The position numbers and the translations under genes are program-made. Source: Dehalococcoidia bacterium (GTDB taxonomy: Bacteria > Chloroflexota > Dehalococcoidia > Lucifugimonadales > UBA3495). From it: a stretch of DNA of 64,000 nucleotides. Positions 8,773-63,560 of this stretch are shown piece by piece; positions within the stretch are counted from its first letter, which is position 1, and each line of letters begins with the position of its first letter. The stretch lies in assembly GCA_965216065.1 (NCBI GenBank), contig CBDCFB010000002.1, forward strand, positions 756-64,755. Reading direction: 5' to 3'. The notes beneath the pieces are model-generated. The model ran no database searches. It was not told the origin of the DNA and saw nothing but the letters and a program-made list of their open reading frames with translations.

Positions 8773-9131
8773 CAGGGCAATCGCATCTTGATTTCAGCAG
8801 GTTGGGTCGGAGGAGCGGACATAGCCGGTTTGCAGAGGCTGATTTTTTCGTTTTTCCGGCCATTTCCGGTCATTTCCTGCCACCCGGAGAAGCGGAGATT
8901 GCTGGTTTGCCGGGGCTGAGTTTTCGTTTTTCCGCTCATTTCCGCTCATTTTCCGCCATTCCGGCAAATCCGGGCTAACCGCTGGTTCAAGGCAGACCCG
9001 CCGGGATCTCCGGCGGGTTGTGTACCATCCGTTTATATCCGTTATAGACATAGCACCAATGCTAGAGAGGTGGCACAAGGCTTGGCAAGGGGCGAATGTC
9101 ACTTCTTATCCTTCCAAATGCGATTGCCCTG
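8773..9131. mobile_element. 359-bp MITE-like element with 14-bp terminal inverted repeats and 10-bp target duplication
   Basis: TIRs are cagggcaatcgcat (8773-8786) and atgcgattgccctg (9118-9131). Direct repeats cgtcggtatg lie at 8763-8772 and 9132-9141. An internal direct repeat tttcgtttttccg..catttccg..tcatt occurs twice. No credible ORF inside. Confidence 0.75.
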
Positions 9132-27397: not shown

Positions 27398-27692
27398 CTA
27401 TCCGCCCGGCCCGCTGACGGTGTAATCCAGGCGGGCTGGACAGCTTCTTGTCGCCGTCGGCGCAGATGGCCCCCTGCGCGTCGCAGTCCCTGGTGGCGGG
27501 CAGCACGATGGTGACGTCGCCGTTGGAGTCTGGTTCGACGGTGATCCCCCAGCCGACGATACTGGGTGGGTTCACACGGCGCGCACCAGTTACCGAGCCT
27601 CCCGTCACCGTGAAAGCGTGGTCGCACAGCGTGGTGTATGTGGAGCCCGTGGCTCGCTCAAGGTTATGGATGATATGAGCCGGCTCATCCAC
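27398..27692 (-). pseudogene. 3' remnant of a paralog of the 1470-aa surface protein
   Basis: ATGSTYTTLCDHAFTVTGGSVTGARRVNPPSIVGWGITVEPDSNGDVTIVLPATRDCDAQGAICADGDKKLS matches the C-terminal repeat of the giant gene. Nucleotide similarity continues past the stop (27345-27400 versus 32745-32804). There is one frameshift before the original stop at 27398-27400. Confidence 0.75.
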
Positions 27693-28126
27693 TCATGCAA
27701 ATAAATATCCTGGGGGTAGAACTGTTGAACGCTCCGGCCTGAAACAAGCGATGCCTGCAGACGGGGCCGCCCGGGCCGCCCCGCCAGACCCCCGGCTAGT
27801 TCGCCTTTCCAACGCCTGAACGCAATTACTCCTACTGGATGGCACTGGTACTGGAGCCTTGGCATAAAGCAGGCTGGCCAGCCTGCGTCTTGGAAGCCGA
27901 CTGAGCCGAATCAGGTTACAGAGGCTTACAGGCCGAAACTAGGGCCATATGCAACTTTCTTCTGCAGAGTTTTGTACGCAACGTTTTGGCAGGAAACTGG
28001 AGTCAACTTTGACTACATTCAGCAACTCGTACACACCTTTTCTCAGCGTGCGTTTCCATGGCCATATCAGTGCTTTTGTATAGGGCGTATGTGATGCTCA
28101 CTGTGAGTGCCAACGCCCATACGTGG

Positions 28127-28190
28127 TTGGGTACATTGCAATCTCGACAACGTCGCGCCGGCGCGGTACTTTTGGGACGCCGGATGCGAC
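28127..28190. repeat. 64-nt repeat with GC palindrome (copy 1)
   Basis: ttgggtacattgcaatctcgacaacgtcgcgccggcgcggtacttttgggacgccggatgcgac. The second copy is at 40666-40729. Weaker similarity extends from tagggcgt at 28081 and 40621. Confidence 0.6.
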
Positions 28191-28327
28191 AAGTAGGGCG
28201 GAGTAAATGTGTACCACCATAGGTCTTTGGCCAGCGTAAATGTCCACGCCAGTTGTTCGGGAGAAGGGTCACAGAGGCAGGCTGACAGCAGGCTGGGCGG
28301 GTGAATGAGGACGGCTACTGGCGCGAC

Positions 28328-28900
28328 TTATGGGTTGTCTAATTCGTTCGGGGCTTGAGCTGCGGCGGTTTCCCGGCTGCGCTTGAGGCGGTAGCTCTCG
28401 CCGTTCATCTCCAGGATGTGGACGTGATGGGTGAGCCGGTCCAGCAACGTCCCGGTGAGGCGCTCCGAGCCGAAGACCTCAGTCCACTCGTCGAAAGGCA
28501 AATTGGTGGTCACCAGGATGGAGCCCCGCTCGTATCGCTGGCTGAACACCTCGAAGAGCAGTTCCGCACCGGAGCGGGACAGGGGGACAAAGCCCAGCTC
28601 GTCGATGATCAGCAGGTTGAGGCGGGACAGCTGCCGCTGGAGGTTGAGCAGGCGTCTTTCGTCCCTGGCCTCGATCATCTCGTGGACCAATGCGGCGGCG
28701 GCGGTGAAACCCACCGCCTTGCCTCTCTGGCAGGCAGCCAAGCCCAGTCCCAGGGCCAGGGCCACATGGGTCTTGCCGGTGCCGCTGTTGCCGACGGCGA
28801 TGACGTTCTCACGGCGCTGGATGTATTCACACCGGGCCAGTTCCATAACCAGTGCCTTGTTCAGAGATGGGATGGTTGGGAAGTCGACGGTGTCCAGCAA
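28328..28900 (-). pseudogene. IS21-family IstB helper ATPase, 5'-truncated by IS110 insertion
   Basis: Walker A (GNSGTGKTH), Walker B (LLIIDELG) and the IstB C-terminus are present. About 70 N-terminal aa are missing. The frame abuts the IS110 transposase stop at 28913-28915. Confidence 0.8.
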
Positions 28901-28912
28901 CTGCCTTTGATG

Positions 28913-29861
<949 letters not shown>

Positions 29862-30493
29862 GTTTCACCTCCAAGGGATTCAGAACGTGGCCCCTCCTTG
29901 CACGATGCGGGCTTGGTTGGCCCAGGCAACTGTTCGGGCTCTCTTAGGAGTAGGTGCGGCGACCCTCGCTATAGAACGGTCTTCCATGACCAAGGAGCAT
30001 TCGATCTGCTGCACCCCGGTCCACCTGAGTGAAGTGATTGTCACACTCCAAAACCAAGATACAAGGAGCATCATTTTCGCTGGCCAGTTAGCGCGGACAC
30101 TTTCGCTGGACGTCAACAGTTTCACACGGCCAGCAAGATGGTGGGTCTGGGTGAGGGCTTCTGCGCTCACTCGCCCCGGGTGGGCACGGTCCAGGACCTG
30201 AGCGCCGCTGGGGCGGACCTACCGGAGCTGATGACCGCGGGAAGGTAGGACCACGCCACCATTCCGGCCCCGGTGCACCGGGGCCCAGGCCGCCGGCAGG
30301 GAGGCGTGTCCCAGTACTACTGGGGCGGGATGCGGGGGTCGCGAGGCCATCGTAAGGTTCTGCGCCTTGAAACAAGCCCAGGTAGGATGACCGCAGCTGA
30401 CGCACGAGGACCCTGAGGACGGATGAGCCGCAGCTATATGCGGCGATTCTTAAGACCGTCCAACACTATTACTGGCCATCTGCGGCTGTAATG

Positions 30494-30764
30494 CTAATCC
30501 AGCTTGATCAGGTTCCATCCAGAGCCCAGGCTGTCTCCCTGAAAGTGATGAGGTTCGTGCAGCCCGACCCAGAGGATGTCGTCGCTCCCCACATGGGTCA
30601 GGGTGTTGAAATCTGCGAACACGGGGTTCGGGTCGAACACGAACCAGTTCTGGGTGCTGTTCTCGTGCTTCCATATCCGGAAGAGGACGCCGGCCTTGAG
30701 CAGTTCCTTGAAGACCATCCGGGGCGGGCCGGTGAGAGTAGCCCCAACTACCTCGACTATGTCT
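30494..30764 (-). pseudogene. 3' fragment of an unknown gene cut by the IS701 insertion
   Basis: The frame is open from the IS boundary (…DIVEVVGATLTGPPRMVFKELLKAGVLFRIWKHEN…WNLIKLD stop). No upstream partner is identifiable on the other side of the IS. Confidence 0.3.
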
Positions 30765-32245
30765 GCTAGTATTACAACGTCAGTTCAGGGAGGGATGTGG
30801 GGTGATGCGCGCATGGCGGCGCGGCGCTTGGCATGGGAGCGTCTGGCCCGCTCGTTGCATTCTTGCGTATCCTCAAGCCACCGCAGCAACTCAGCTGGCC
30901 CGAGCCGTTCCCGGGGCAGCATCTCCCGCACCACCCGGTAGACCTGCGGCCTCGTGATCCGGGGCATCTTTTTCCCACCAAGCCTGTTGCAGGCTCAGCA
31001 GAAAAGCTCCGCCCAGCAGGCACAGGGCCACATGGTGATGCCAGCCAGCCCAGGTGCGGGTCTCGTACTGCGTCCAGCCCCACGTCGCTTTTCTCCGTCT
31101 CGAACTCCGTTTCTATACGCCAGCGGGAGCCTCCCACGTATGCCAGGGTCTCCAACGGGGTATCCTCCGGTGCATTGGACAGATAGTAGCGGGGTTCGCT
31201 GCCATCCAGATTCCGGCGGTAAATGGCCCAGTGGATTTCGCCGGGCTTGCGCCTGCTGGTTGGACGCACCCTCTGGGCACTGAACAGGTAGCTGCGTGGG
31301 CCCTGGCTTCCCTCGGCCACCGTAATCTCACGCCACGCCTCCTCCGTGATGGCATCGGCCCGCTCCGCCATCGTCCGCCGCTGCCCGCTGCGGAGCCTCG
31401 GCTTGCGGGGACGCCCGAATCCCTGATACTCCACGCTGGTCCAAGCAGGCTCCGGCGGCCACACCGTAAAGCCGGACGGAACGTCCAGCACGTACCACAT
31501 CCCCAAGGCCGCCAGGCCGTCGCGGAATAACGGCGACATGCCGAAGGCATCGTCCGCAGCGACCCATCCAGCCTTCAGGTGGCCCCGCTCCTGCGCCCGC
31601 CCCACCATCTCCAAGGCCAACTCCGTCCCTTCGACAGGCTCAGGACCGGTAGCCCTGCCTATCCTGGGCACACCCGCCGCCTCACACCGGTCTTTGTCCG
31701 AGGTCCAACTCTCCGGCAGATGCAGCCGTTTGTCCACCAGGGCCCGTCCCAACGGGCTGACATAGGCCAAGAACATTCCGGCTTGGCAGTTGGCCACCTT
31801 CCCCAGCCTGCCGCAGTACTGCCGGGCCACTCCCGCCGACTTCCGTCCCTGCTTGGGAAAGTCGCTGCCGTCCAGCACCCACACCCCTTCCGGATGCTCC
31901 AGCCGGGTTCCCAGGTACTCCTGCAGCCGTCCTATAATCGCCTCATCGTCCTAGGGAGAATCGGTGAGAAACCGCTGCATCCCTCGGGCTGACCCCGGAA
32001 CCGTCTCCGACAGGTTCTCAGCGTTGCGCCGCTCCCCGGACTGTACCAGCAGGGCCTGGAGATAATGACCGCTGTGCTCCCGCGTCTCCCGGCGGCCAAA
32101 CAGCGGAGCGAAGTAAGCGTGAAAATCCCCAAAGGCCCCGTACATCTGTTCGAAAACTTCTGCATCCACATCCCCACCTCACCTGCCTGTTCCCTCTCCA
32201 GTTACACAGCCATCCTATCAAACCAACTGACGTTGTAATACTAGC
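30765..32245 (-). mobile_element. IS701-family insertion sequence, transposase decayed
   Basis: Perfect 21-bp terminal inverted repeats (gctagtattacaacgtcagtt at 30765-30785 and its complement at 32225-32245). The transposase lies in three frames, with an in-frame TAG at 31951-31953 (FLTDSP-stop-DDEAI, where the family has SPWD) and two frameshifts (near 31075 and 30985). Confidence 0.85.
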
Positions 32246-32801: not shown

Positions 32802-35800
32802 TCATCCCGGCCCGCTGACGGTAAGCTCCAGGCGGTTGGACAGCATCCTCCCGTCATCGGTGCAGATGGCCCCCTGCGCGTCGCAGTCCTCGGTGACGGG
32901 CAGCTCGACGGTGACGTCTGCGTTGGAGTCTGGATCGACGGTGATCTCCCAGCCGATGTTGCTGCCGCCGACCAGCCGTCGTGCCCCGGCCACCGCGCCT
33001 CCCTCCACCGTGAACACATGGTCGTCCCGCAGCGTCTTGTAGCTGAAGCCCGTCTCGAGCTCCTCGCTGAAGGCAATCCTGAATTTGACGTTGTTACTGC
33101 CGTTGTGGGACGTCGGGACGCTCTCGAAACTTGCCGTCAGCGGAGGCCCCGTGACGGTGAATTTCAATGGGCTGGACAGCATCCCGTCGTCATCGGTGCA
33201 GATGGCCCCCTCGGCGTCGCAGTCCTCGGTGACGGGCAGCTCGACGTTGACGTCCGCGTTCGAGTCCGGGGTGACGCTGATCTCCCAGCGTATGTTACCC
33301 GGCGGGTTCAGCCGCCGGGCCCCGGCCACCGTGCCTGCCGTCACCGTGAACGCATGGTCCCGCATCGTCTTGTAGCTGAAGCCCGTCGCAGGCTCCTCGC
33401 TGAAGCTCAGTTCGAAGGTGAACTTTTCGCTGCCGTTGTGCGACTCCGGCGCGTCGTGGACGGCGGCTGTCAGCTGGGTCTCCGCAGTCTCCTGCGCGTC
33501 TTCCGCCTCGTGCGTCCCCGGCGGTGTCTCTTCATCGGGGATGATCAGGGGTGGGGCGGCGATCATTGCGTTGCCGGTCAGCGACTCTTCGTTGCCCGCA
33601 TCGTCGGTGAAGGAGACCCGCACCTTGATGGCCTTGCCCTCGTCATCGTCGGTCATGGTGTAGGTGGAGCCTGTCGCTTCCTCGATGTCGGCGTCAGTGA
33701 AGGTCGCCAGGTCATTGCGTATCCACTGGTAGGAGAAGACCGCGCCCGTCAGGCCGTCCTCGTCCTCGATGCCGTCTGTGGTCGCCGTCAGCGTCTCCCC
33801 GGCCCGCACCGTCCCGTCGATGCCCGGCCAGCCCGTCGCCGGGCTGTTGGCCTGCAGGCTCCTCGAGGTGAGCGGCCCTCCCGTCAACGTCAGCGTGAAG
33901 TGGTCGCCCTGGAACGGGACGCTGCCCCTGCCCCTGGCGGTGACGGCGACGTAGTAGTCGCCGGCGTCCGGCGCGGTGAACACCAGGGCGGGGCTGTCGG
34001 GGCACGTGTTTGGTCGGCGCGACGTTTCCGCCCTGGTGTTCACCGCAGTGACACCGTCGGACTGGTAGACGGCCCGGATGATGCCTTGGTGCTGGTAGCA
34101 GCCGTGTATCTGTACGTCATAGACCAGCCGGTACTCATCTTCCTGCTGCAGGCCGGTGAGCCGTATCCAGTCCACGTCGGAGGTGGATGAGCTGCTGTAG
34201 TTTCTCTCCGTGCGCATCACGTAGTTCTGCAGGCTATCGCCCGCCGCGACCTCGGCCGTGGTGCTCGTGGAGGCCGGGTAGTCGTCGGACTGCGCCGACA
34301 GGTTGTACCCAACATACAGCCCCTCTCGGTAGGCCGTCCAAGTCTGTATCGACACGTAATGGACTCCGGTCTTCTCCGCCCGTAAGGGCAGGCTGTTGAC
34401 CCGATCGACAGAGTTGTAGACCGCGGGGAATCCGCTACCTGGGATTTGACTCGAGTAAACTTCCCTTCCTATGTCGGTGTAGACTTTCAGCAGGTACAGC
34501 TTCGTCGGCGTCCCAGGGGCAACGGGGCCATTGAGTCCCACGGCGGAAGCGTCGAACTGGTAATCCACGCCGACCTCGAGTTCGACGCGGAACCAGTCAA
34601 CGTCCGCGTGGCTGCAGAGGCGGCCCTCCACGCTGCCGTCGACCACGAGGCTCCCGCTGGTGGAGGTGTCCGCGCTGTGCGGATCGTCGCAGGGGGTGGG
34701 CTCGCCGAGAATCGCCATCTTGAGGCGGGTATCGTTGGGCGTTGGCTCCCAACTGCCGTCCGACATCGTTGCACGGGCGGGGCCTGCGAGCGACCAGTTC
34801 CTGGCCGCGATGTTCACGCCCGTGTCCTGGGTTAGGAAAACCTGGACGGCATTGGATTCTGTGGCCGACTCCGCGGCGTCGATGACCAGCCAGTAGGTCG
34901 TACTCGCGGAGAGGGTGATGCTGGCCGAAGCGTGGAACGTGAGCAGGCCCGGCCGCGGGTTGATCTGCAGAGCCAGTTGGTGCAGCGAGGCCCCCGGGAG
35001 TCCTCTTTCGTCCGCGTGTATCGCGGCCCTGAGCCCGCCCGCGAATATTGTCGTAAAATCCCCCAATTCGATCTGCACGCCGCGCAGGACGTAACCCGTT
35101 TCATCGTCTCCGGTCCTGAACGGCTGCGCGACCGCACGTCGACCTAAGCTGGTTGTGGAAACTATGGCGTTCCCCAGCTGCGTCTTGCCCAGGTTGATGA
35201 TCAGCGGCGCGGCGGGCGTGGGGGGAGCAGGGTTGGGCAGCGGGTTCGGCCACCCGTGGACGTTGAGCGGGATCCGCTTGACGTCCCCTGCGCCGAAGTT
35301 CCAGTCGTCTCCGTAGCCCCAGGGATGGACGAAGCGGTTACCATAGGGAAACGAGCCGAGCGCCCAGCCCTCTGCGGCGCCGGGGTCCTGTTTGGGGCCG
35401 GCGTTGGGCGTCTCGTAGTACCCCGCGCCGACGTTGCTGAAATAGGCCACGTAGGCGCTGTCTGGACCGACCTGGAATCGCTGGCTGCCGGTCAGCGCGG
35501 CGAACCGGTCGGGCGAAGCGTCCACGCTGCTCGCCTGGTAGCTGGCCAAGGGCGGCGAGGGGTCGCCACTGCCCTCGCGGGTGCTGAACACGTCTACGGC
35601 GTAGATCGCCGCCCTGGGATCCACCGGCCCTTTCAGGGTGTTCCGGACGTCGATGTCCACCCCGAGGCCGGTGATGGTGTAGCCGGTGGGGTGGGGGCCG
35701 GTGGTGAACCTGCGCCCGCCAGCCCACTCGTGGTCGTAGTAGTTGCTCGGGTGGAGGTTGCACAGCCGCTTCGATCTCTCCGTGTCGTCGCCTGCCACGA

Positions 35801-37214
35801 ACGCCGGTTCGCAGTGGTCGAAGGTTCTGTCCTTGGGCAGGCTGATCAAGGTGGCGGTGATCTCCTCCGTGCCGAAGCGCAGGAAGGGGCCGTCGGCGGC
35901 GGTGTCCCGCAGCCCGTGGGCCCCCACCAGCACCCGCTCCGCCGCATAGCCGTAGAAACTCATCTGGACGGGCCCATCGGACGCTTCCGTCCAAGTGAAC
36001 CCGGTCGCGGTTAGGTAGTTGATCCGGTGCCTCGTGTCGCCGATCATCCAGCTTGCGAAACCGGCGTCCTCATTACCGTTTGCTGCCAGATGAAGGGAGT
36101 AGAAGCCCGCCCCGGTTACCTCATCGAAGACCCCCCAGTACTTCCGGCCTGGTTCCAATGTCGCGTTGTCCGGGAATGTGGCGGTGAGATCGAGGTCACG
36201 GATCGAACCGGATGGAACTTCTACGTACGCGACATACAGGGCGCCTGCAGCGGGGCCGTCGCTGTCGTCGCCGTGGATTGCGACACGGAACAGACCTCCG
36301 GATATTGTCGAGACACCAAAGGTGATAGAGCTGAGCGCGTACCAGCCCGCGTCGCCGCCCGGTGTGAAGGAGGTCGCAGACCCCCAGTAGCCGCCCGACG
36401 GAAGGCCGCCGACCTCCCAGGACCCGATGCCCCCGCGCGATTCGCTATCGAAGCTCTCGTTGCCGCCGAGCTTTTCGGGGGTGTTCTGCGGCTCGCCGAG
36501 CACTGCTATCTCGATGACCCGCTCTACCGTCCTCCACTCAACGCTGCTGGATCTGAGATATCTATCGTTATTTATGCTCCATCCATCGACCGGCGGCGGA
36601 ACCTGGTCCTCGGCTGAGGAACTCGTGGTCCCGAGGTACAGCGTTTCCCTCAAGGCCTCGAATACGACCCAGTACCTGGAGCCGCCGGGAATTACCGTCC
36701 CCGACGGGGCTGCCAGGGTGTACTCCGCAAACTCACCGGTGCTGGCGAAGTCGCCTGGCACGGTCAGGGTGTGCAGACGGGAGCCAGGGAGCCCGTTGGC
36801 GTCCCTGTGCAGGCTGGCGCTCACTTCCGGAACAAAAACATCACCACCTAGTACGCTTGACCTAGCTGCGACCCGAATGCCCTGGAACCGGTAGCCGAGG
36901 CCGCCGGAGCCCGGACCGGCGACAAAAGACTGTGCCTGCTGTGAGTCCTCAATAATAGTGGCTTCCAGCGCATCCAGTTGCCCAAGATTTGAGACGAGCG
37001 TCCCGATGCTGTTCTGCTGCAGCGCCACCGGCGGGTCATCCAACCCCGAGGGGTCGGACGAGGTGTCCGTGGTTGCCTCTTGCGCATGGGCTGCGGACAC
37101 GAGGGCCACGAGCAGGGCCATGATTGCCAGGAAGGGTAGCAGCCTGGTCAGGATGGGTGCGCTCCTTGACCGGTCTCCTACGAGCGAAGGCAAGTGTCGA
37201 CGCAAGGCCCGCAT
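32802..37214 (-). CDS. Giant secreted multi-domain surface protein (1470 aa)
   Basis: Signal peptide (LLPFLAIMALLVALVSAAHAQEA). Four copies of a roughly 110-aa module (LVSNLGQ...AQSF/AQPF...GLPG...YWVV/YWLV). Two pre-peptidase-C-terminal-like segments (DVDWFRVEL, DVDWIRLTG). One Ig-like module (TLTATTDGIEDEDGL...YQWIRND...GKAIKVRVSFTDDAGNEES). Two 95-aa C-terminal repeats (FSYKT.RDH.FTV..G.V.GARRL...PDSNADV.VELPVTEDCDA.GAICTDD). Confidence 0.85.
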   Translation of the reverse strand: MRALRRHLPSLVGDRSRSAPILTRLLPFLAIMALLVALVSAAHAQEATTDTSSDPSGLDDPPVALQQNSIGTLVSNLGQLDALEATIIEDSQQAQSFVAGPGSGGLGYRFQGIRVAARSSVLGGDVFVPEVSASLHRDANGLPGSRLHTLTVPGDFASTGEFAEYTLAAPSGTVIPGGSRYWVVFEALRETLYLGTTSSSAEDQVPPPVDGWSINNDRYLRSSSVEWRTVERVIEIAVLGEPQNTPEKLGGNESFDSESRGGIGSWEVGGLPSGGYWGSATSFTPGGDAGWYALSSITFGVSTISGGLFRVAIHGDDSDGPAAGALYVAYVEVPSGSIRDLDLTATFPDNATLEPGRKYWGVFDEVTGAGFYSLHLAANGNEDAGFASWMIGDTRHRINYLTATGFTWTEASDGPVQMSFYGYAAERVLVGAHGLRDTAADGPFLRFGTEEITATLISLPKDRTFDHCEPAFVAGDDTERSKRLCNLHPSNYYDHEWAGGRRFTTGPHPTGYTITGLGVDIDVRNTLKGPVDPRAAIYAVDVFSTREGSGDPSPPLASYQASSVDASPDRFAALTGSQRFQVGPDSAYVAYFSNVGAGYYETPNAGPKQDPGAAEGWALGSFPYGNRFVHPWGYGDDWNFGAGDVKRIPLNVHGWPNPLPNPAPPTPAAPLIINLGKTQLGNAIVSTTSLGRRAVAQPFRTGDDETGYVLRGVQIELGDFTTIFAGGLRAAIHADERGLPGASLHQLALQINPRPGLLTFHASASITLSASTTYWLVIDAAESATESNAVQVFLTQDTGVNIAARNWSLAGPARATMSDGSWEPTPNDTRLKMAILGEPTPCDDPHSADTSTSGSLVVDGSVEGRLCSHADVDWFRVELEVGVDYQFDASAVGLNGPVAPGTPTKLYLLKVYTDIGREVYSSQIPGSGFPAVYNSVDRVNSLPLRAEKTGVHYVSIQTWTAYREGLYVGYNLSAQSDDYPASTSTTAEVAAGDSLQNYVMRTERNYSSSSTSDVDWIRLTGLQQEDEYRLVYDVQIHGCYQHQGIIRAVYQSDGVTAVNTRAETSRRPNTCPDSPALVFTAPDAGDYYVAVTARGRGSVPFQGDHFTLTLTGGPLTSRSLQANSPATGWPGIDGTVRAGETLTATTDGIEDEDGLTGAVFSYQWIRNDLATFTDADIEEATGSTYTMTDDDEGKAIKVRVSFTDDAGNEESLTGNAMIAAPPLIIPDEETPPGTHEAEDAQETAETQLTAAVHDAPESHNGSEKFTFELSFSEEPATGFSYKTMRDHAFTVTAGTVAGARRLNPPGNIRWEISVTPDSNADVNVELPVTEDCDAEGAICTDDDGMLSSPLKFTVTGPPLTASFESVPTSHNGSNNVKFRIAFSEELETGFSYKTLRDDHVFTVEGGAVAGARRLVGGSNIGWEITVDPDSNADVTVELPVTEDCDAQGAICTDDGRMLSNRLELTVSGPG

Positions 37215-38524
37215 CTACTTCTCCTTCGCCCAGAGCCCGATCCTGCCGATCGTGTAGCCGAGCGGATGCGCCCCGGTGACAAAGCCATTCGAAGCATCTC
37301 CGCCGGTCGAGTCGACAAGGACGCCGGTTTGACCAAAGTTGCTGACCAGAGTCCGCGGCGCGGGCACGATGACCGAGGTGGCGGGTCCCGTGCGCGTCTC
37401 TGGGTTGTTGTCGTTGTCAGTGATCTGCACTTGCAGCCGTATCCGCATCGTCATCACCGTTGATCGTGTAGGTGGGGTACCTGGTGCTTTCCAGATCCGT
37501 GATGTCGCCCAGGTGGATGGCGCTATCCCCTGTGGCATCAAGATCTGAACTCCGGGTCGTATTTTCGGACGACTCCCGAGTGGGTTCCGGGGGTAGCTTC
37601 CGGCGTGGGTTCCGGGGGGTAGCTTCCGGCGTGGGTTCCGGGGGGTAGCTTCCGGCGTGGGTTCCGGGGGGTAGCTTCCGGCGTCCGGCGTGGGTTCCGG
37701 GGGGTAGCTTCCGGCGTGGGTTCCGGGGGGTAGCTTCCGGCGTGGGTTCCGGGGGGTAGCTTCCGGCGTGGGTTCCGGGGGGTAGCTTCCGGCGTGGGTT
37801 CCGGGGGTAGCTTCCGGCGTGGGTTCCGGGGGGTAGCTTCCGGCGTGGGTTCCGGGGGTAGCTTCCGGCGTGGGTTCCGGGGGTAGCTTCCGGCGTGGGT
37901 TCCGGGGGGTAGCCTCCGGCGCGGGTTCCGGGAGGTAGCCTCCGGCGTGGGTTCCGGGGTAGCCTCCGGCGTGGGTTAGGGAGTTGGGGTTGGTTCCTCC
38001 GTAGGCTCAGGCGTGGATACAGGCTCCTCAGGAGTTTCGGGATTGCGGCCGTTGAAATGCTTGCTCTCAGGGCTTCGGCCGGCGGAGTTCCTCGCCTTAA
38101 CCCGATAGACATATCCGTGGCCCGCCTCCACGGTGTTGTCCGTGTACGAAGTGGCGGATGATCCGGTGTCTTCTACCAGGGTTTCAAATTGGCCTATATC
38201 GTGGATTGCCTTGTCCCGTCTGAGTATCCGATGGCCCGTGATGCTCTCGTCTCCGGGGTCGTCTCAAGTCAGAGACACAGAATTGTGGCTGACGGTGCCG
38301 GTCAACCCCGTCGGCTTTGACGGTACGTTCGCTTCCTGCGCCCTTGCCGGCCATACCAAAGCCATCGCTGACGCCCAAATGATCAACGCTGTGGCAGTTA
38401 TGAGGGATAGCTCAGGGGTCGCTGTCCAGAAACCTTGAATTTCACATTCCCCATTGCCGGGTTGTATTTGGATCACGTCATTGAACTCTGGCGTTCCAAA
38501 GCTTCGCAGTCGCGGCGGCAGCAA
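37215..38524 (-). pseudogene. Secreted FN3-domain / Pro-Thr-linker surface protein, decayed
   Basis: Signal peptide plus FN3 (PSKPTGLTGTVSHNSVSLT-TGA-DDPGDESITGHRIL...YVYRVKARNSAG). In-frame TGA at 38264-38266 at the conserved FN3 Trp. In-frame TAA at 37976-37978. The tandem repeat breaks the frame. The distal part (LVSNFGQTGVLVDS...GYTIGRIGLW) starts the same module as the giant protein and ends one codon before the giant gene ATG. Confidence 0.75.
37582..37972. repeat. 15-unit tandem repeat with non-triplet period (24-33 nt, mostly 26)
   Basis: Unit gggttccgg(g)4-6tagcttccggcgt. Unit lengths are 25,26,26,33,26,26,26,26,25,26,25,25,26,26,24. They differ mainly in G-run length (4, 5 or 6). 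The minus strand has no stop in any frame. Confidence 0.95.
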
Positions 38525-38652
38525 TTGAGTTCAACTTGGCTGATATGGAGCGCCCCATAAGTAATAGTTAGGTATTCTGGACAGCATTTTAATGATCATT
38601 AGTGAATAATTCGTGAAACTACTCTCCGAAACAGTGACTATATTGTGAGAAT

Positions 38653-38685
38653 TGTGTGAAATTGCAATTCCCGCTTTTTCACACA
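38653..38685. promoter_or_regulatory. Candidate operator: 9-bp inverted repeat in an AT-rich upstream region
   Basis: tgtgtgaaa-N15-tttcacaca lies within the AT-rich stretch 38530-38780, upstream of the FN3 gene start (38524, minus strand). Confidence 0.3.
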
Positions 38686-38950
38686 AAATAGTGATCCTTT
38701 GAAGGGGCATAGGAGTGCAAATTCGATCTGCCATTGGCGTTAGCTAATTTTGTCGGTTATACATCCAGTATGGAGGTTCAGGATTGACAACAAACCTGAA
38801 AGTCAGGATGTTGAGGCAGCTGGGGATGGAGAGGAGAAGGACCGAAACGGACAACACCGATAAAATCAGTGCGCTCAGCTTGCGATCAATCAGTGCGATG
38901 CCCACCTACCTGATTGAGTGCATTCCAAGGAGAGACAACCAGGGGGGCGC

Positions 38951-40300
38951 CTACAGCCCGCCAATTGCGACGGCGTTGCTGGATGTCGCCTCTACGGTTC
39001 TGCGGTCCCGGGTGGGGTCGCTGCTGGAAATGACGAGGTTCCCGGACGCGTTACGGGGACCGCTGGCTCCGTCGTAGTAGGTGATGGAGACCTTCAGGAG
39101 TTTGCCTTGGTCCGCTGCCGCGGGAGCATAGCACCCCGGGGATGAACATCTGCTGTTGTTGCCGCCAAACAACGTGAAAGGGCCAATTGCGGTATAGGCT
39201 TTGTGCCACTGTGCCTAGACGACCCGCAGCTCACCATCCGAGTCAGTCAAGACGGCATTGAGCACACTGCCCACCGCCGGCGTCGGTGGAATCAGGGTGA
39301 TGCTTCCCGCCTCGTCGATGTTCTTGACGCGAATCGTGACGGAGACTGAATCGTCGGTCAGGGCCGGGCTTTCCGCGTTGCCGGAGGCGTCCTCGCCATC
39401 GGTCACGTCGACCGTGATGGAGTAAGAACGCTTCACCTCGTAGTTGGGAGACGCGCCGGACTTCACGGTTATCTCGCCGGTGCTCGCGTTCATGGCAAAG
39501 ACCCGGTTGAATCCAGCGGCGTCCGCTCCGGAGACCGAGTGGGTGACGGAGTCGTTGTCCGGGTCCGCGGCCGTCGTCTGGCCTACGACGGCGCCGGCGT
39601 CGGCGTTCTCGTTCACCTCCATGGTCAAGGGAGCCGCAGGGTCGATGCAGGGAAAGACCGGTTGTGTTATGGACGGCGTATCTCCACTGGCATGGACGGC
39701 CATCCTCATCCTGTACCCGTTGGGCCTTTCGGCGGTGACGAAAGCAGGGCGCCACCCGGCGTTGCCTCGGTGGGACATCTTGTCACCCATGGACCACCCT
39801 GCCGCGGAGAGTTCATGCCTTGACCCCGTGACGCCGAATGCCAAGGAGTCCTGTACCGATAAGACCAACCAGTAGCGGGCATTGGCTTCGAGCGTAACGC
39901 CGCTGCTCGTGAAGTCCTCATTGGATGAAATGGTATTGTCAAAGGTCGTCGGGTTGGAGAGTGTGGCAACCGTCTGACCCGGCTCACCCGACCGGTCAGC
40001 GCGTATGGTCACCGATGGGGCCGGATTGGGACCGCTGGTGCTTCTCGTGGCCAAGCGCACCTTGGCGAGAGCAACAGCGAAGGGGCCGGTGCAGAATGAC
40101 TGTGCGTATTGCTGGCCCTCGCCCAGTGAGATTTGGCTGGTTTCCGCCGCTTCCAGGTTGCTGACCCTGACCGTTTCGGTCGACTGCGCTCCCGCGGTGG
40201 TGACGCCTGCCACCGCGAGCACGACCGCCATGACGATGGCCGGCGCCCAGAGCCCATGCAGTCGAGGCCGGGCGCCCTGTTTGCCATCCTCATCCGTCAT
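38951..40300 (-). pseudogene. Secreted surface protein (QSF-type module + cadherin-like domain) interrupted by one in-frame TAG
   Basis: The 361-aa ORF 39215..40300 has a signal peptide, one RVSNLEA...AQSF...YWLVLSV module and a cadherin-like domain (VNENADAGAVVGQTTAADPDNDSVTHSVSGADAAGF...TGEITV). The same frame continues after the TAG (39215-39217) for 87 more codons (…AADQGKLLKVSITYYDGASG…). The N-terminal ORF could still be expressed. Confidence 0.65.
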
Positions 40301-49537: not shown

Positions 49538-51491
<1,954 letters not shown>

Positions 51492-51603: not shown

Positions 51604-52273
51604 ATGAGGGGTATAAGCCGACGACCCTTCCGGGCGGCGGCAGTGCTGACTGTCCGGGGCTGCCGCCCCCACCATGGAAAGGCGCTCCAGCAGACCTCCG
51701 GCTTGGGCCGGCATGGCTCGGCACCCGGCGGGCGGCGTACGTTGCGGAGCGCACAGAGGACACGGGGCCTGGCCTCCTGTGCGCTCCACCGAGAATTTAT
51801 CTGGGCGATAGGCCGGGTGCCCCGTTGCCTTACCGGCAGAATGGAAGGCCACCCAGGGCTGACTGATCCATATCCAATTGGACCGACAAACTGCTTGGCA
51901 CGCATCCGGTCAACTGGTTCACGTCGAGCCGCAGCGATGTCAGGTTTTCGAGGTTGCCCAACTCCGGCGGTATCTCCCCGCTCAACTGGTTCTCGTCGAG
52001 GCTCAATATTTCTATGTTGGCGAGTCTGCCCAACCGCGGCGGTATGTCCCCGCTCAGTAGGTTCCCGCTGAGGGCCAGCCATTCCAGGTTGGTGAGGTCG
52101 CCCAACTCCGGCGGTATCTCCCCGCTCAACTGGTTATGCCTGAGGGCCAGGCTCTCCAGGTTGGCGAGGTTGCCCAACTGCAGCGGTATCTCCCCGCTCA
52201 GCTGGTTCTCGTAAAGCTCCAAGTACTCCAGGCTGGCGAGGTTACCCAACTGCGGCGGTATCTCCCCGCTCAA
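51604..52273. repeat. 670-bp direct repeat, copy 1 (copy 2 at 53617..54286)
   Basis: Offset is exactly 2013 nt. All six-frame ORF translations across the two copies are identical (for example 51878..52060 = 53891..54073 and 51954..52214 = 53967..54227). Confidence 0.9.
51830..52269 (-). pseudogene. Orphan 3' fragment of an LRR lipoprotein gene (duplicate of the 3' end of 53843..54898)
   Basis: Encodes [29 protein letters not shown]...[17 protein letters not shown], identical to the C-terminus of the downstream-copy gene. It has no start of its own. It begins right at the stop of gene 52270..53490. Confidence 0.8.
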
Positions 52274-53490
52274 GGCGTGGTTGTCTCGCCGCAGTCTGGG
52301 AGGCCAAGCTGGGCAAGGTCGTGGTACCGGACGTCCTGCAGCCCCGCCGGAATGCAGCCCGTCAACTGGTTGTTTGAAAGATAGATTTCTTGCAATTCGG
52401 CCAGGTTGTCCAACGCCACCGGAATCGTTCCGGTAAACAGGTTGGAGGTGAGGTACAACCCTTCCAACTTGCCCAGGTTGCCCAGCCATGCCGGAATGCT
52501 GCCGGAAACCCGGTTGGAACTCAAGGTGAGCCACTCTAAGTTGGTTAGACGACTCATTTCCGACGGTATCGCCCCTGTCAATCGGTTTTCCGGCATGTGC
52601 AATTGCCACAAGGCGGTCAAGTCACCGATTTCCCTTGGTATTCGCCCGGTCAATTGGTTGTTTCCCAGGGCCAGAGACCCCAAGTTGGCGAGGCTGCCCA
52701 GTTCGGCCGGAATAATCCCGGTCAACCGGTCCCCACTCAGGTCGGCGCTACCATCAAGGTCCAACCGCGTGACTCGCTGCGGCGCGCCGTTCAGGGTCAC
52801 ACCGTCCCAGTCGCCCACAGGGGTCGCAAACGACCAGTTCAAGGTAGCGGTTCCTCTGAGGGCGTCCCGGGACGCCAGCAGCGCCTCGCAATCGGATATC
52901 AGGCCGGGGTTTTCGTGGGGATTCGGCACGGCGATACCATTGGAACACGAGTCGGGAATTAGAGGCGCAGCAGTCGGTGTGGGTCGTGGCGTGGTCGTGG
53001 GTCGCGGGGTTGATGTGGGTCTGGGCGTCAGCGTGGGCCTCGGCGTCAGCGTGGGCCTCGGCATCAGCGTGGGCCTCGGCGTAGGCGTGGGTTGGGGTAC
53101 TGCAGTGGGATACGGGGTAGCTGTAGGCCATGGCGTGTTCGTCGGCCAAGGTGTTGCGGTGGGATACGGTGTGGGTGTAGGCCGTGGCCTATTCCTTGGC
53201 TCTGGAGTCGAGGTGGGCAAAGAGGCGTTTGTTGGCCGAGGCGCTGCTGTGGGCATTGGCCCTGGAGTCGAGGTGGAGGTGGTTAAGGCCGCAGCGACTT
53301 TTGCCTCCACTGTTGCGTCAATCGCAGTCTCTGCCTCACGGGTGCCGCTGACACCTGCCTCCACCGTCGCCGGAACGTCAGCCGTCGGTAGGGATGCTGT
53401 TTGTGTGTCCGCAGTAGACGGTGCCTCGCTGGAGCAGGCAACAGCCGTCAGGCCGGAGATTACCAGAACAATCAGGATGATAATTCTCAT
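52270..53490 (-). CDS. Lipoprotein: shared leader cassette + Pro/Thr linker + plant-type LRR domain (variant B)
   Basis: [19 protein letters not shown] lipobox and the same leader, then an LRR N-cap ([14 protein letters not shown]...NW) and LTGxIPxxLGxLxNL repeats. Confidence 0.85.
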
Positions 53491-53616: not shown

Positions 53617-54286
53617 ATGAGGGGTATAAGCCGACGACCCTTCCGGGCGGCGGCAGTGCTGACTGTCCGGGGCTGCCGCCCCCACCATGGAAAGGCGCTC
53701 CAGCAGACCTCGGGCTTGGGCCGGCATGGCTCGGCACCCGGCGGGCGGCGTACGTTGCGGAGCGCACAGAGGACACGGGGCCTGGCCTCCTGTGCGCTCC
53801 ACCGAGAATTTATCTGGGCGATAGGCCGGGTGCCCCGTTGCCTTACCGGCAGAATGGAAGGCCACCCAGGGCTGACTGATCCATATCCAATTGGACCGAC
53901 AAACTGCTTGGCACGCATCCGGTCAACTGGTTCACGTCGAGCCGCAGCGATGTCAGGTTTTCGAGGTTGCCCAACTCCGGCGGTATCTCCCCGCTCAACT
54001 GGTTCTCGTCGAGGCTCAATATTTCTATGTTGGCGAGTCTGCCCAACCGCGGCGGTATGTCCCCGCTCAGTAGGTTCCCGCTGAGGGCCAGCCATTCCAG
54101 GTTGGTGAGGTCGCCCAACTCCGGCGGTATCTCCCCGCTCAACTGGTTATGCCTGAGGGCCAGGCTCTCCAGGTTGGCGAGGTTGCCCAACTGCAGCGGT
54201 ATCTCCCCGCTCAGCTGGTTCTCGTAAAGCTCCAAGTACTCCAGGCTGGCGAGGTTACCCAACTGCGGCGGTATCTCCCCGCTCAA
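53617..54286. repeat. 670-bp direct repeat, copy 2
   Basis: See 51604..52273. Identity ends at 52273/54286. Confidence 0.9.
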
Positions 54287-54898
54287 CTGGTTCTCGCCGA
54301 GGTCCAGGCTCTCCAAGTTGGCGAGGTTGCCCAACTCCGGCGGTATCCCCCCGCTCAACTGGTTATTCCTGAGTTGCAGGCTCTCCAAGCTGGCGAGGTT
54401 GCCCAACTCCGGCGGTATCTCCCCGCTCAACTGGTTATTCCAGAGGGCCAGTTCGATGACACGGCTGTTGTCGTCAGTGGTGACGCCGTACCACTCGCCA
54501 ATCGGCAACTCGCTCAGCCAGTTATTGCTTTCTTCCCAATTCAGGCCGCCGGTGGCGTCATAGAAATCGACCAGCGCTTCCCGGTCCGTTTCGGGCGAGG
54601 TCTGCGCCATCATCGGCGCGGCGGTGGCCACAGGTGCGGGTGCGGTGGTGGCCCTGGGAGCGGAGGTGGAGCTGGTGGTCAGGGTTGCTGCGACTTTTGC
54701 CTCCACTGTGGCGTCAATCGCCGCCTCTGCCTCCGTCTCTGCCTCACGGGTGCCGCGGATACCTGCCTCCACCGTCGCCGGAACGTCAGCCGTCGGTCGG
54801 GATGCTGCTTGTGTGTCCGCAGTAGAGGGTGCCTCGCTGGAGCAGGCAACAGCTGTCAGGCCGGAGATTACCAGAACAATCAGGATGATAATTCTCAT
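53843..54898 (-). CDS. Lipoprotein: shared leader cassette + plant-type LRR domain (variant C)
   Basis: ATG at 54898. The same signal and leader, a short linker, an LRR N-cap (DREALVDFYDATGGLNW) and about 9 [12 protein letters not shown] repeats. Confidence 0.85.
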   Translation of the reverse strand: MRIIILIVLVISGLTAVACSSEAPSTADTQAASRPTADVPATVEAGIRGTREAETEAEAAIDATVEAKVAATLTTSSTSAPRATTAPAPVATAAPMMAQTSPETDREALVDFYDATGGLNWEESNNWLSELPIGEWYGVTTDDNSRVIELALWNNQLSGEIPPELGNLASLESLQLRNNQLSGGIPPELGNLANLESLDLGENQLSGEIPPQLGNLASLEYLELYENQLSGEIPLQLGNLANLESLALRHNQLSGEIPPELGDLTNLEWLALSGNLLSGDIPPRLGRLANIEILSLDENQLSGEIPPELGNLENLTSLRLDVNQLTGCVPSSLSVQLDMDQSALGGLPFCR

Positions 54899-54947
54899 TC
54901 CCTTTCCCCAGTGCCGCGAAAATATTCCATCGCCCCTATCGACAGGT

Positions 54948-55349
54948 TCAACGGTCCCCGGCTCTGACTGAGGCGAACTCCCAGCCCGCATCCAGTCTCT
55001 TCCCTTCCGTCTGCGGAGGGGAGTAAGAACAGGGGCTTGCCAGCGGAACACCAGCGGCTAAAAGCCATGCCCCAGCGTTGGGTACTGGCTTGCGTTGCCG
55101 AAGTCCCAGAGGCCATCGCCAACTACATCCTCTGCTCGCATTGCCGCAGGAAGCCAGCGGCCCCCAACTCCGTGGTCTCTGGTTCAGGCGTCGGTTCAGG
55201 CGTGGCTTCGGGCCCTGCTGTGGCGGCGGGAATGGGGACGGCCACAGCCGACGGCTGTGGTTTGGCGCACCGGCACACCCGGCCAGCAGTACGGCAAGGA
55301 GTAGCGCACCCACTCCCGGCAGTCCCAGCTCAATGGACTTTGACATCAT
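54948..55349 (-). pseudogene. Decayed lipoprotein gene (multiple frameshifts)
   Basis: MMSKSIELGLPGVGALLLAVLLAGCAG lipobox. Sensible sequence then continues only by switching frames (AKPQPSAVAVPIPAATAGPEATPEPTPEPETTELG; then EDVVGDGLWDFGNASQYPTLGHGF). Confidence 0.4.
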
Positions 55350-63327: not shown

Positions 63328-63370
63328 AAAACGATCCACTCGGAGACGGCTCTGGTCAAAAACTGCCCAG

Positions 63371-63560
63371 TCACCATGGGGTCGGCTCCGCGGGGCCGAG
63401 GCACGGTGCCTCCTTGCTGGGGAGGTCAGCTTTGAAATGGCGGGTCCCAGGGGTCACCACGGGGTCGCCGCGGCGGGCCGAGGCACGGTGCCTACTGACT
63501 GGGAAGGTCAGCTTTGAAATTGCGGGTCCCAGGGGTCACCACGGGGTCACCACCATGGGG
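63371..63560. repeat. About 83-bp tandem repeat, 2.3 copies, each with an internal palindrome
   Basis: Units start at 63371, 63454 and 63536 (tcaccayggggtc...). Each contains gaggcacggtgcct(c) (63398-63412 and 63480-63494) and ggtcagctttgaaat.gcgggtcccagggg. Confidence 0.85.

Follow-up and report, generated by a model that had tools for sequence, protein, structure and literature searches.

A frame-breaking tandem array in a secreted-protein pseudogene of an uncultured Dehalococcoidia bacterium is probably a hypervariable minisatellite

Introduction

Within the gene for a surface-type protein, the DNA analysed here (64,000 nucleotides of a Dehalococcoidia bacterium, hereafter the window) carries a long tandem array built mostly of 26-nt units, raising the question of whether gain and loss of repeats switch the encoded protein on and off, or whether the array expanded in a gene that had already been lost. 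Both readings were offered in an earlier note on this sequence, the first as a slipped-strand phase-variation device and the second as a runaway expansion after gene death. Perfect tandem repeats mutate at rates of 1e-3 to 1e-6 per generation, and in coding DNA selection acts against units of non-triplet length (PMC3899988); bacterial tandem repeats of variable copy number, including those located in promoters, are well known (PMC12817950).

Structure of the array

Splitting the sequence at each GTGGGTT or GCGGGTT yields units of 25, 26, 26, 33, 26, 26, 26, 26, 25, 26, 25, 25, 26, 26 and 24 nt between 37580 and 37970, reproducing the list of fifteen lengths given in the earlier note; the unit reads ACGCCGGA(A/G)GCTACC(C2-4)GGAACCC on the coding strand (Table 1). 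Tandem Repeats Finder places the array at 37580-37977 with a period of 26, 15.3 copies, 93% matches and 5% indels, its score of 656 being by a wide margin the highest in the window. All ten occurrences of the 26-nt consensus with at most three mismatches fall inside the array, against none in 100 shuffles.

The main variable from unit to unit is, as previously described, a G run of 4, 5 or 6. In plus-strand order, units 1-12 have a single sequence, varying only in whether the G run has 5 or 6 bases and in the 7-nt duplication that unit 4 carries; divergent units are confined to the 5' edge of the array in coding sense, with 12 of the 15 alike apart from indels. In the three units on the FN3 side CCTC replaces CTTC, one of them having GGGAGG and the last a G run of 4. 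Read in order along the coding strand, the C runs of the window allele are 4, T-variant (6), 6, 5, 5, 6, 5, 6, 6, 6, 6 (with the additional 7 nt), 6, 6, 6 and 5, and nine of the 30 G or C runs of at least 6 in the whole window lie within the array.

Fourteen of the fifteen units (25, 26 or 33 nt, the 33-nt one being a 26-nt unit with a 7-nt duplication) are not divisible by three, the single exception being the 24-nt unit, which encodes the in-frame TPEATPEP linker on the minus strand, as had been recognised, and presumably represents the linker unit in its ancestral, in-frame form. The minus strand is free of stop codons across the array in each of its three frames, and the readings PEPTPEATP, RNPRRKLPPG and THAGSYP rotate from unit to unit, again in agreement with the earlier description. 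Two-unit hairpins can form on the G-rich strand (dG -10.8 kcal/mol per unit pair, z -2.5 to -3.0); the C-rich, mRNA-sense strand has no stimulatory structure (z about 0) and no slippery heptamer.

Table 1. Features of the array, its host pseudogene and the adjacent gene, in window coordinates
Feature	Position	Strand	Description
Tandem array of 15 units	37580..37970	minus	391 nt; units of 24-33 nt, modal length 26
First unit in coding sense	37947..37970	minus	The sole 24-nt unit; TPEATPEP in the FN3 frame; same in three assemblies
GGGAGG unit	37921..37946	minus	26 nt; coding strand CCTCCC; found in all three assemblies
33-nt unit	37657..37689	minus	26-nt unit with a 7-nt duplication, GTCCGGC, at 37683-37689
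Pseudogene 5' part	37979..38524	minus	Hydrophobic signal-like N-terminus, FN3, non-repetitive Pro/Thr/Glu linker (PETPEEPVSTPEPTEEPTPTP)
In-frame TGA	38264..38266	minus	Replaces conserved FN3 Trp (SLT*DDPGD)
In-frame TAA	37976..37978	minus	In the Pro/Thr linker (PTPTP*PTPEATPEP), 5 nt upstream of the array
Post-array remnant	37417..37579	minus	Frame +1 relative to FN3; DATGDSAIHLGDITDLESTRYPTYTINGDDD, then divergence and a stop
Third-frame fragment	37215..37450	minus	…LQVQITDNDNNPE…LVSNFGQ…IGRIGLWAKEK*; like the N-terminal LVSNLGQ module of neighbouring large proteins
Downstream gene, intact	32802..37214	minus	1470 aa; signal peptide, repeated beta-rich modules; begins right after the pseudogene

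The host gene and its lesions

The host gene lies on the minus strand from about 38524 to 37215, as debris between two paralogous surface-protein genes. Its domain order runs from a signal peptide through an FN3 domain, scored by Pfam (fn3) at E=3.5e-10 in the read-through translation, to a Pro/Thr linker, after which a PPC-type domain begins. Both in-frame stops to which the earlier note had pointed are real. The TGA falls within the TW(D/N)DP motif of the FN3 domain (TWDDPGD), whose Trp is kept by all homologues; the TAA follows in the linker. Downstream of the array, the DATGDSAIHLGDITDLESTRYPTYTINGDDD segment aligns with residues 252-288 of an intact FN3-FN3-PPC protein from a Dehalococcoidia MAG (L001; BLASTP, 54% identity over 37 aa, E=4e-9), in which the Pfam PPC domain runs from residue 290; similarity to L001 ends after INGDDD, just where PPC begins, with a stop nine codons on. 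The last ~230 nt of the debris read as a piece of the LVSNLGQ module with which the neighbouring 1470-aa and 361-aa proteins begin, a motif akin to the LVSNFGQ fragment being present in the 1470-aa protein and in a further homologue, P0014, and the end of this fragment provides the AAGGAG ribosome-binding site of the 1470-aa gene.

The host gene is a pseudogene, dead independently of the array by virtue of the TGA, the TAA and the truncated downstream domain, with the disabling lesions hitting positions conserved in intact homologues (the Trp of TWDDPGD; the complete PPC domain of L001 and P0040). The total excess of the units over 24 nt is 31 nt, equal to 1 modulo 3 and to the frame offset between FN3 and the post-array segment, which is consistent with a linker originally built of in-frame 24-nt units, chance agreement having a probability of 1 in 3.

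An alternative genetic code in which TGA specifies tryptophan was considered and rejected, as table 11 leaves the long reading frames of the window (63% GC) uninterrupted and the second stop, a TAA, follows. A selected overlapping reading frame at 37417..38112 was likewise rejected, its sole relatives being the same locus in two assemblies and its N-terminus an out-of-frame reading of FN3.

Linkers of intact homologues

Homologues of the host gene encode small secreted proteins of FN3, FN3-FN3, FN3-PT-PPC or FN3-PT-'LASNLGQ' architecture. A protein search with FN3 found no orthologue closer than 66% identity, homologues lying at 50-66%, and a scan of species-representative genomes recovered FN3 relatives only, at 32-62% identity and mostly in Dehalococcoidia MAGs, with no orthologous locus; JGI metagenome contigs scanned for the junction of 24-nt units gave no matches, as did exact-product look-ups of two neighbouring window proteins. 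Among the intact homologues, P0040 comprises FN3, a PEPTPEPTPE-type linker (APAPEPTPEPTPE) and a PPC domain that passes the Pfam threshold, and P0014 a long PEPTPEPTAEPT linker. Three intact lipoprotein genes in the window carry TPRPTP-type linkers with periods of 18, 36 and 54 nt and open frames. Working linkers of this family are therefore triplet-compatible, imperfect repeats, to which the near-perfect 26-nt array in a dead gene is the exception. FN3-linker genes of the related contigs L011, L012 and L013 are also broken or frameshifted in or beside the linker (one contig at 2x coverage), and Pro/Thr linkers seem to be general weak points.

Variation between strains

A protein search with the array-spanning frame 37417..38112 returned only two other proteins, each of 186 aa, on the assemblies L009 (ENA ERZ25071132, 155 kb) and L010 (ENA ERZ26694896, 4.6 Mb). 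The locus and its neighbours are arranged there as in the window, with 99.3-99.8% identity apart from a few more diverged stretches, and the downstream gene is also called at 1470 aa in both. When the pseudogene is aligned, the three assemblies agree exactly in the TGA, the TAA and the truncated end; lesions common to independent assemblies are thus not assembly errors of one record. Outside the array the pseudogene differs by one SNP in 1010 columns across the three assemblies, whereas the array has 15 units in 391 nt in the window and 10 units in 256 nt in each of the others; as the arrays differ while the flanks stay constant, the array is, compared with those flanks, a mutational hot spot. 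This contradicts an absence of variation between strains, an outcome that the earlier note had also envisaged. The C runs read 4, T6, 6, 6, 5, 6, 6, 5, 6 and 6 in L009 and 4, T6, 6, 5, 4, 7, 6, 6, 6 and 6 in L010, spanning 4-7 across the three alleles, and the 7-nt duplication at 37683-37689 is missing from both. The L009 and L010 alleles are exactly 256 nt each despite four differing runs. Contig names (ctgN_14x_l) resemble those of a homopolymer-compressing assembler and may point to one.

The three fully read alleles, of 391, 256 and 256 nt, are all 1 modulo 3, so that none rejoins FN3 and the PPC remnant in frame, the two lying in different frames in every allele. The mutability expected in the earlier note is real: unit number (15 against 10) and tract length (4-7) vary between strains of about 99.5% identity, with the frame class unchanged. 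Agreement of three alleles in length modulo 3, with a chance of about 1 in 9, is mildly unexpected under pure neutrality and could hint at constraint; it could also reflect a polishing artefact that keeps total length while misplacing homopolymer bases, and single run lengths in L009 and L010, such as the adjacent 4 and 7, could be length-preserving polishing errors of this kind.

The locus is present in twenty public runs under seven organism names, with one raw-read run (X21) from the same study under an eighth. Contigs built from k-mers of these runs break within the array, as expected. In ten runs, contigs of 40-72 nt span the junctions G5-to-G6 and G5-to-G5, as well as the GGGAGG and G4 units, with no mismatches or gaps, the GGGAGG unit lying within a 72-nt contig of run X1; sequencing platforms of the ten are unrecorded, and homopolymer length per unit is less certain than unit count. 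The unit bordering the downstream flank occurs as G5 only in X8, as G6 only in X4, X11 and X18, and in both forms in X1, X2 and X7; the flank contig of X3 and X12 stops at 37593, within the G run of this unit, and no G6 form is seen there. In some samples these G5/G6 mixtures co-occur with mixtures of flank SNPs (k-mer contigs and few short reads), most simply read as co-existing strains; flank SNPs lie at 37477, 37922 and 38494. The ratio of cyclic G6 contig depth to flank depth, a rough measure, is about 2.4 in X4 and X11, 6-7 in X3 and X12 and about 11 in X18, which suggests that samples range in unit number from 10 to over 15.

The 7-nt duplication is private to the strain of the window, depth over this stretch being zero in all ten high-word-share runs examined. 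At 38494 the window base is likewise private in every run covering the position; at 37922 the window base is rare, X2, X3, X8, X12 and X18 being fixed for the alternative and X1 having it only as a minority. Two probable RNA runs have low-depth contigs over a portion of the FN3 region and over the beginning of the next gene, so that the locus may still be transcribed.

A divergent strain, sharing 0.56 of sampled words, is represented by X19 and X20 together with X21 (Illumina Hi-C raw reads, 10 reads). Its contig from X19 and X20, covering 37949-38700, has no change at 38264-38266 and keeps the TGA, which is therefore older than the split between lineages; at 37978 an A>C change in X19, X20 and X21 gives GAA (Glu) where the window has TAA, making the TAA the younger of the two stops. 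The array of this strain begins with G6 and then G4 units in Illumina raw reads (only two), and non-triplet units are already present in both lineages.

Origin of the array

The array is probably a hypervariable minisatellite (VNTR) derived from the Pro/Thr/Glu linker of an FN3-linker-PPC secreted-protein gene that no longer has a full-length product. Its units of more than 10 nt are arranged head to tail with high identity, and copy number is polymorphic (15 against 10) between conserved flanks. Of the two readings first proposed, it is runaway expansion after gene death that the data favour: the lesions are present in three strains, the TGA also in the divergent one, and the expanded unit is itself frame-breaking.

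The ancestral linker would have consisted of an in-frame 24-nt unit whose TPEATPEP comprises two 12-nt TPEx halves, one copy apparently being left at the 5' edge of the array. A gain of 2 nt in the ACC-CCG run may then have produced the 26-nt unit, the shifted frame probably escaping selection because the gene carries the TGA at the FN3 tryptophan, common to the diverged lineage. Amplification of the 26-nt unit could have proceeded by replication slippage or by unequal recombination between perfect direct repeats, and the C5-C7 runs so formed (G runs when read on the plus strand) would gain and lose single bases. Today both the number of units and the length of the tracts change far more quickly than the flanks do, and the array presumably has no coding function. 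For the observed anatomy, lesions, strain polymorphism and flank constancy, we infer an order in which the 2-nt gain preceded amplification, slippage as the mechanism, and neutrality. Stabilisation of slipped intermediates by hairpins of the G-rich strand is a speculative addition.

Alternative explanations

Broader in scope is the proposal that the array is a relic or member of a lineage-wide habit, in which C-rich linkers of secreted FN3, cadherin, LRR and PPC proteins serve as slippage switches governing display of a C-terminal domain or expression of the adjacent large surface protein; this is improbable. Hints in its direction are the breakage of L011, L012 and L013 at their linkers and the common modulo-3 length of the three alleles, which plain decay also fits.

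A working slipped-strand phase switch, in which gain or loss of a unit or of a single G/C would toggle the post-linker domain between ON and OFF, is very unlikely, although a hypermutable, non-triplet, stop-free array does lie inside a reading frame of a secreted or surface-type gene family, and both the number of units and the length of the tracts vary among near-identical strains and apparently inside single samples as well. No tract state yields a full-length protein, the TGA and TAA being present in all three assemblies (the TGA in the divergent strain as well) and the downstream domain being truncated; the three alleles read fall into one non-restoring frame class, so that neither a length state with an intact product nor alleles of different frame classes are found among them. 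Flank SNPs are heterogeneous in the same samples too, and mixed strains may account for the mixed alleles. Tracts in phase-variable genes are also usually longer than G runs of 4-7. The phase-variation device suggested by the earlier note is therefore not upheld.

Comparably doubtful is a cis-regulatory role, by which the length of the array, located 366-756 nt upstream of the 1470-aa gene, would alter transcription of that gene or its 5'-UTR. The pseudogene remnant abuts the gene and supplies its ribosome-binding site, and the G-rich strand can fold into two-unit hairpins, but the array is far from the start codon, and a promoter and terminator scan of 37100-38800 gave nothing above shuffles, the sole promoter consensus match, itself at shuffle level, lying upstream of the array and none between array and gene. 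The sole RNA contig near the gene start extends only 13 nt upstream of the ATG.

More improbable still is a sequencing or assembly artefact, according to which the true repeat would be a uniform in-frame 24 or 27 nt and the 25- and 26-nt units homopolymer miscalls. Units do differ almost solely in homopolymer length, and the equal lengths of the L009 and L010 alleles with different run distributions, including the odd neighbouring 4 and 7 of L010, look as if they came from mispolishing. The GGGAGG unit, however, is 26 nt long without being a homopolymer and is the same in three assemblies, so that its additional 2 nt are not a homopolymer miscall; contigs of ten other runs match stretches with G5 and G6 exactly; a G6 unit followed by a G4 unit is seen in Illumina raw reads from the divergent strain, in two reads only; and neither 391 nor 256 nt is a multiple of 24, 27 or 3. 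A uniform unit of 24 or 27 nt, which the earlier note had itself raised, is ruled out by these exact contigs and by the non-triplet units of L009 and L010.

Translational recoding, whether by programmed frameshifting in the C-rich units or by stop readthrough, would still yield a protein from an array open in all three frames, yet is extremely improbable given two FN3-frame stops upstream of the array, an mRNA-sense strand lacking slippery heptamer and stimulatory structure, and a downstream domain truncated regardless.

Implications

As a probable VNTR in a pseudogene, the array carries little functional weight, its interest being that of a natural example of a coding linker repeat freed from frame selection, in which a frame-breaking unit amplifies and its runs drift. 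Unit number and run pattern vary where the flanks do not, making the locus a sensitive strain marker for an uncultured bacterium. It is also an annotation trap, gene callers having turned the stop-free array into a 'protein' of 186-231 aa that is now in protein databases, and a test case for the handling of homopolymers by long-read metagenome assemblers.

Comparison with known repeat systems

Simple-sequence contingency loci, such as the tetranucleotide repeats of Haemophilus and the homopolymers and pentamers of Neisseria (PMC2651432, PMC4085013), resemble the array in placing a non-triplet repeat within the frame of a surface protein, in the rotation of the frame with each change in length and in tract polymorphism among strains. 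They differ in unit size (1-7 nt, against 26 nt here) and in that no length of the array gives an intact protein, its alleles all belonging to one frame class.

With PT interdomain linkers (Pfam PF04886, 'PT disordered repeat') the array shares its position between FN3 and a PPC-type domain and a first unit reading TPEATPEP, the homologues P0014 and P0040 having PEPTPEPT linkers in the same place. Functional linkers of this type have imperfect repeats with periods that are multiples of three, whereas the array is near perfect with 14 of 15 units frame-breaking, and has neither a triplet period nor an open frame joining both domains.

Bacterial VNTRs, including the MIRU-VNTR and other loci of Mycobacterium tuberculosis (PMC12817950, PMC3899988), likewise consist of pure head-to-tail units of more than 10 nt, vary in copy number between close strains while their flanks remain constant, and are presumed to change by slippage or unequal recombination. 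Unlike these, the array has a unit derived from a protein linker and yet in 14 of 15 cases not a multiple of three, adds variation in homopolymer length within its units, and lies in a pseudogene of an uncultured bacterium.

Strain variation around the array

Through the array runs an open reading frame, assembled from the stop-free repeat and out-of-frame FN3 sequence, which gene callers have turned into a 186–231-aa 'protein' that appears in the public protein collection for three assemblies; this 'protein' is an annotation artefact. The cadherin-domain gene upstream of the pseudogene carries 129 nt (39424–39552) absent from both L009 and L010, the assemblies with 10-unit arrays from strains about 99.5% identical, while L009 and L010 have an extra GACGCC hexamer in a short repeat just upstream of the 129-nt segment. 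Like the array, this neighbouring surface-protein gene is thus structurally polymorphic between strains. Downstream of the intact 1470-aa surface-protein gene lie several transposase genes (DDE_5, IS110-type, IS21/IstB and DDE_Tnp_1_4), the order and layout of which are not the same in L009 and L010, and the entire neighbourhood looks like a variable island.

A low-depth (3x) contig from sequencing run X12, with about 91% identity to the array flanks, places 235 nt between positions 37521 and 38070, against 548 in the window, and probably comes from a related strain or a paralogue whose linker is different or much shorter.

Coordinates of features near the array, elsewhere in the window and in related contigs
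Feature	Position	Strand	Character
Spurious ORF	37417..38112	minus	array plus FN3 sequence
Cadherin-domain gene	39215..40300	minus	upstream neighbour of pseudogene
Transposase genes	window about 27400-32000; L009:15809-19650; L010:7558-12310		downstream of 1470-aa gene
Lipoprotein genes	49899..51491; 52270..53490; 53843..55051	minus	common N-terminus
Frameshifted FN3-linker genes	L011:3590-3700; L012:1300-1340; L013:1010-1080		related metagenome contigs

Linkers, repeats and shared leaders elsewhere

Frameshifts within or beside the Pro/Thr linker were also seen in FN3-linker genes of three related metagenome contigs: in L013, two shifts separate FN3 from an otherwise good PPC domain; the L011 gene has additional lesions; and the L012 frameshift rests on a contig of only 2x coverage. 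In this gene family the linkers seem to be places where breaks recur.

Tandem Repeats Finder, run on the 64-kb window, reported two other non-triplet tandem repeats, at 63370–63548 (82-nt period, 2.2 copies) and 8808–8958 (76/77-nt period, 2 copies). Three lipoprotein genes have almost the same N-terminus, followed in the first two listed by an in-frame Pro/Thr linker. Their C-terminal domains differ: the first gene has a periplasmic-binding-protein domain there, the second and third have leucine-rich repeats, an arrangement that looks like domain shuffling onto one common leader.
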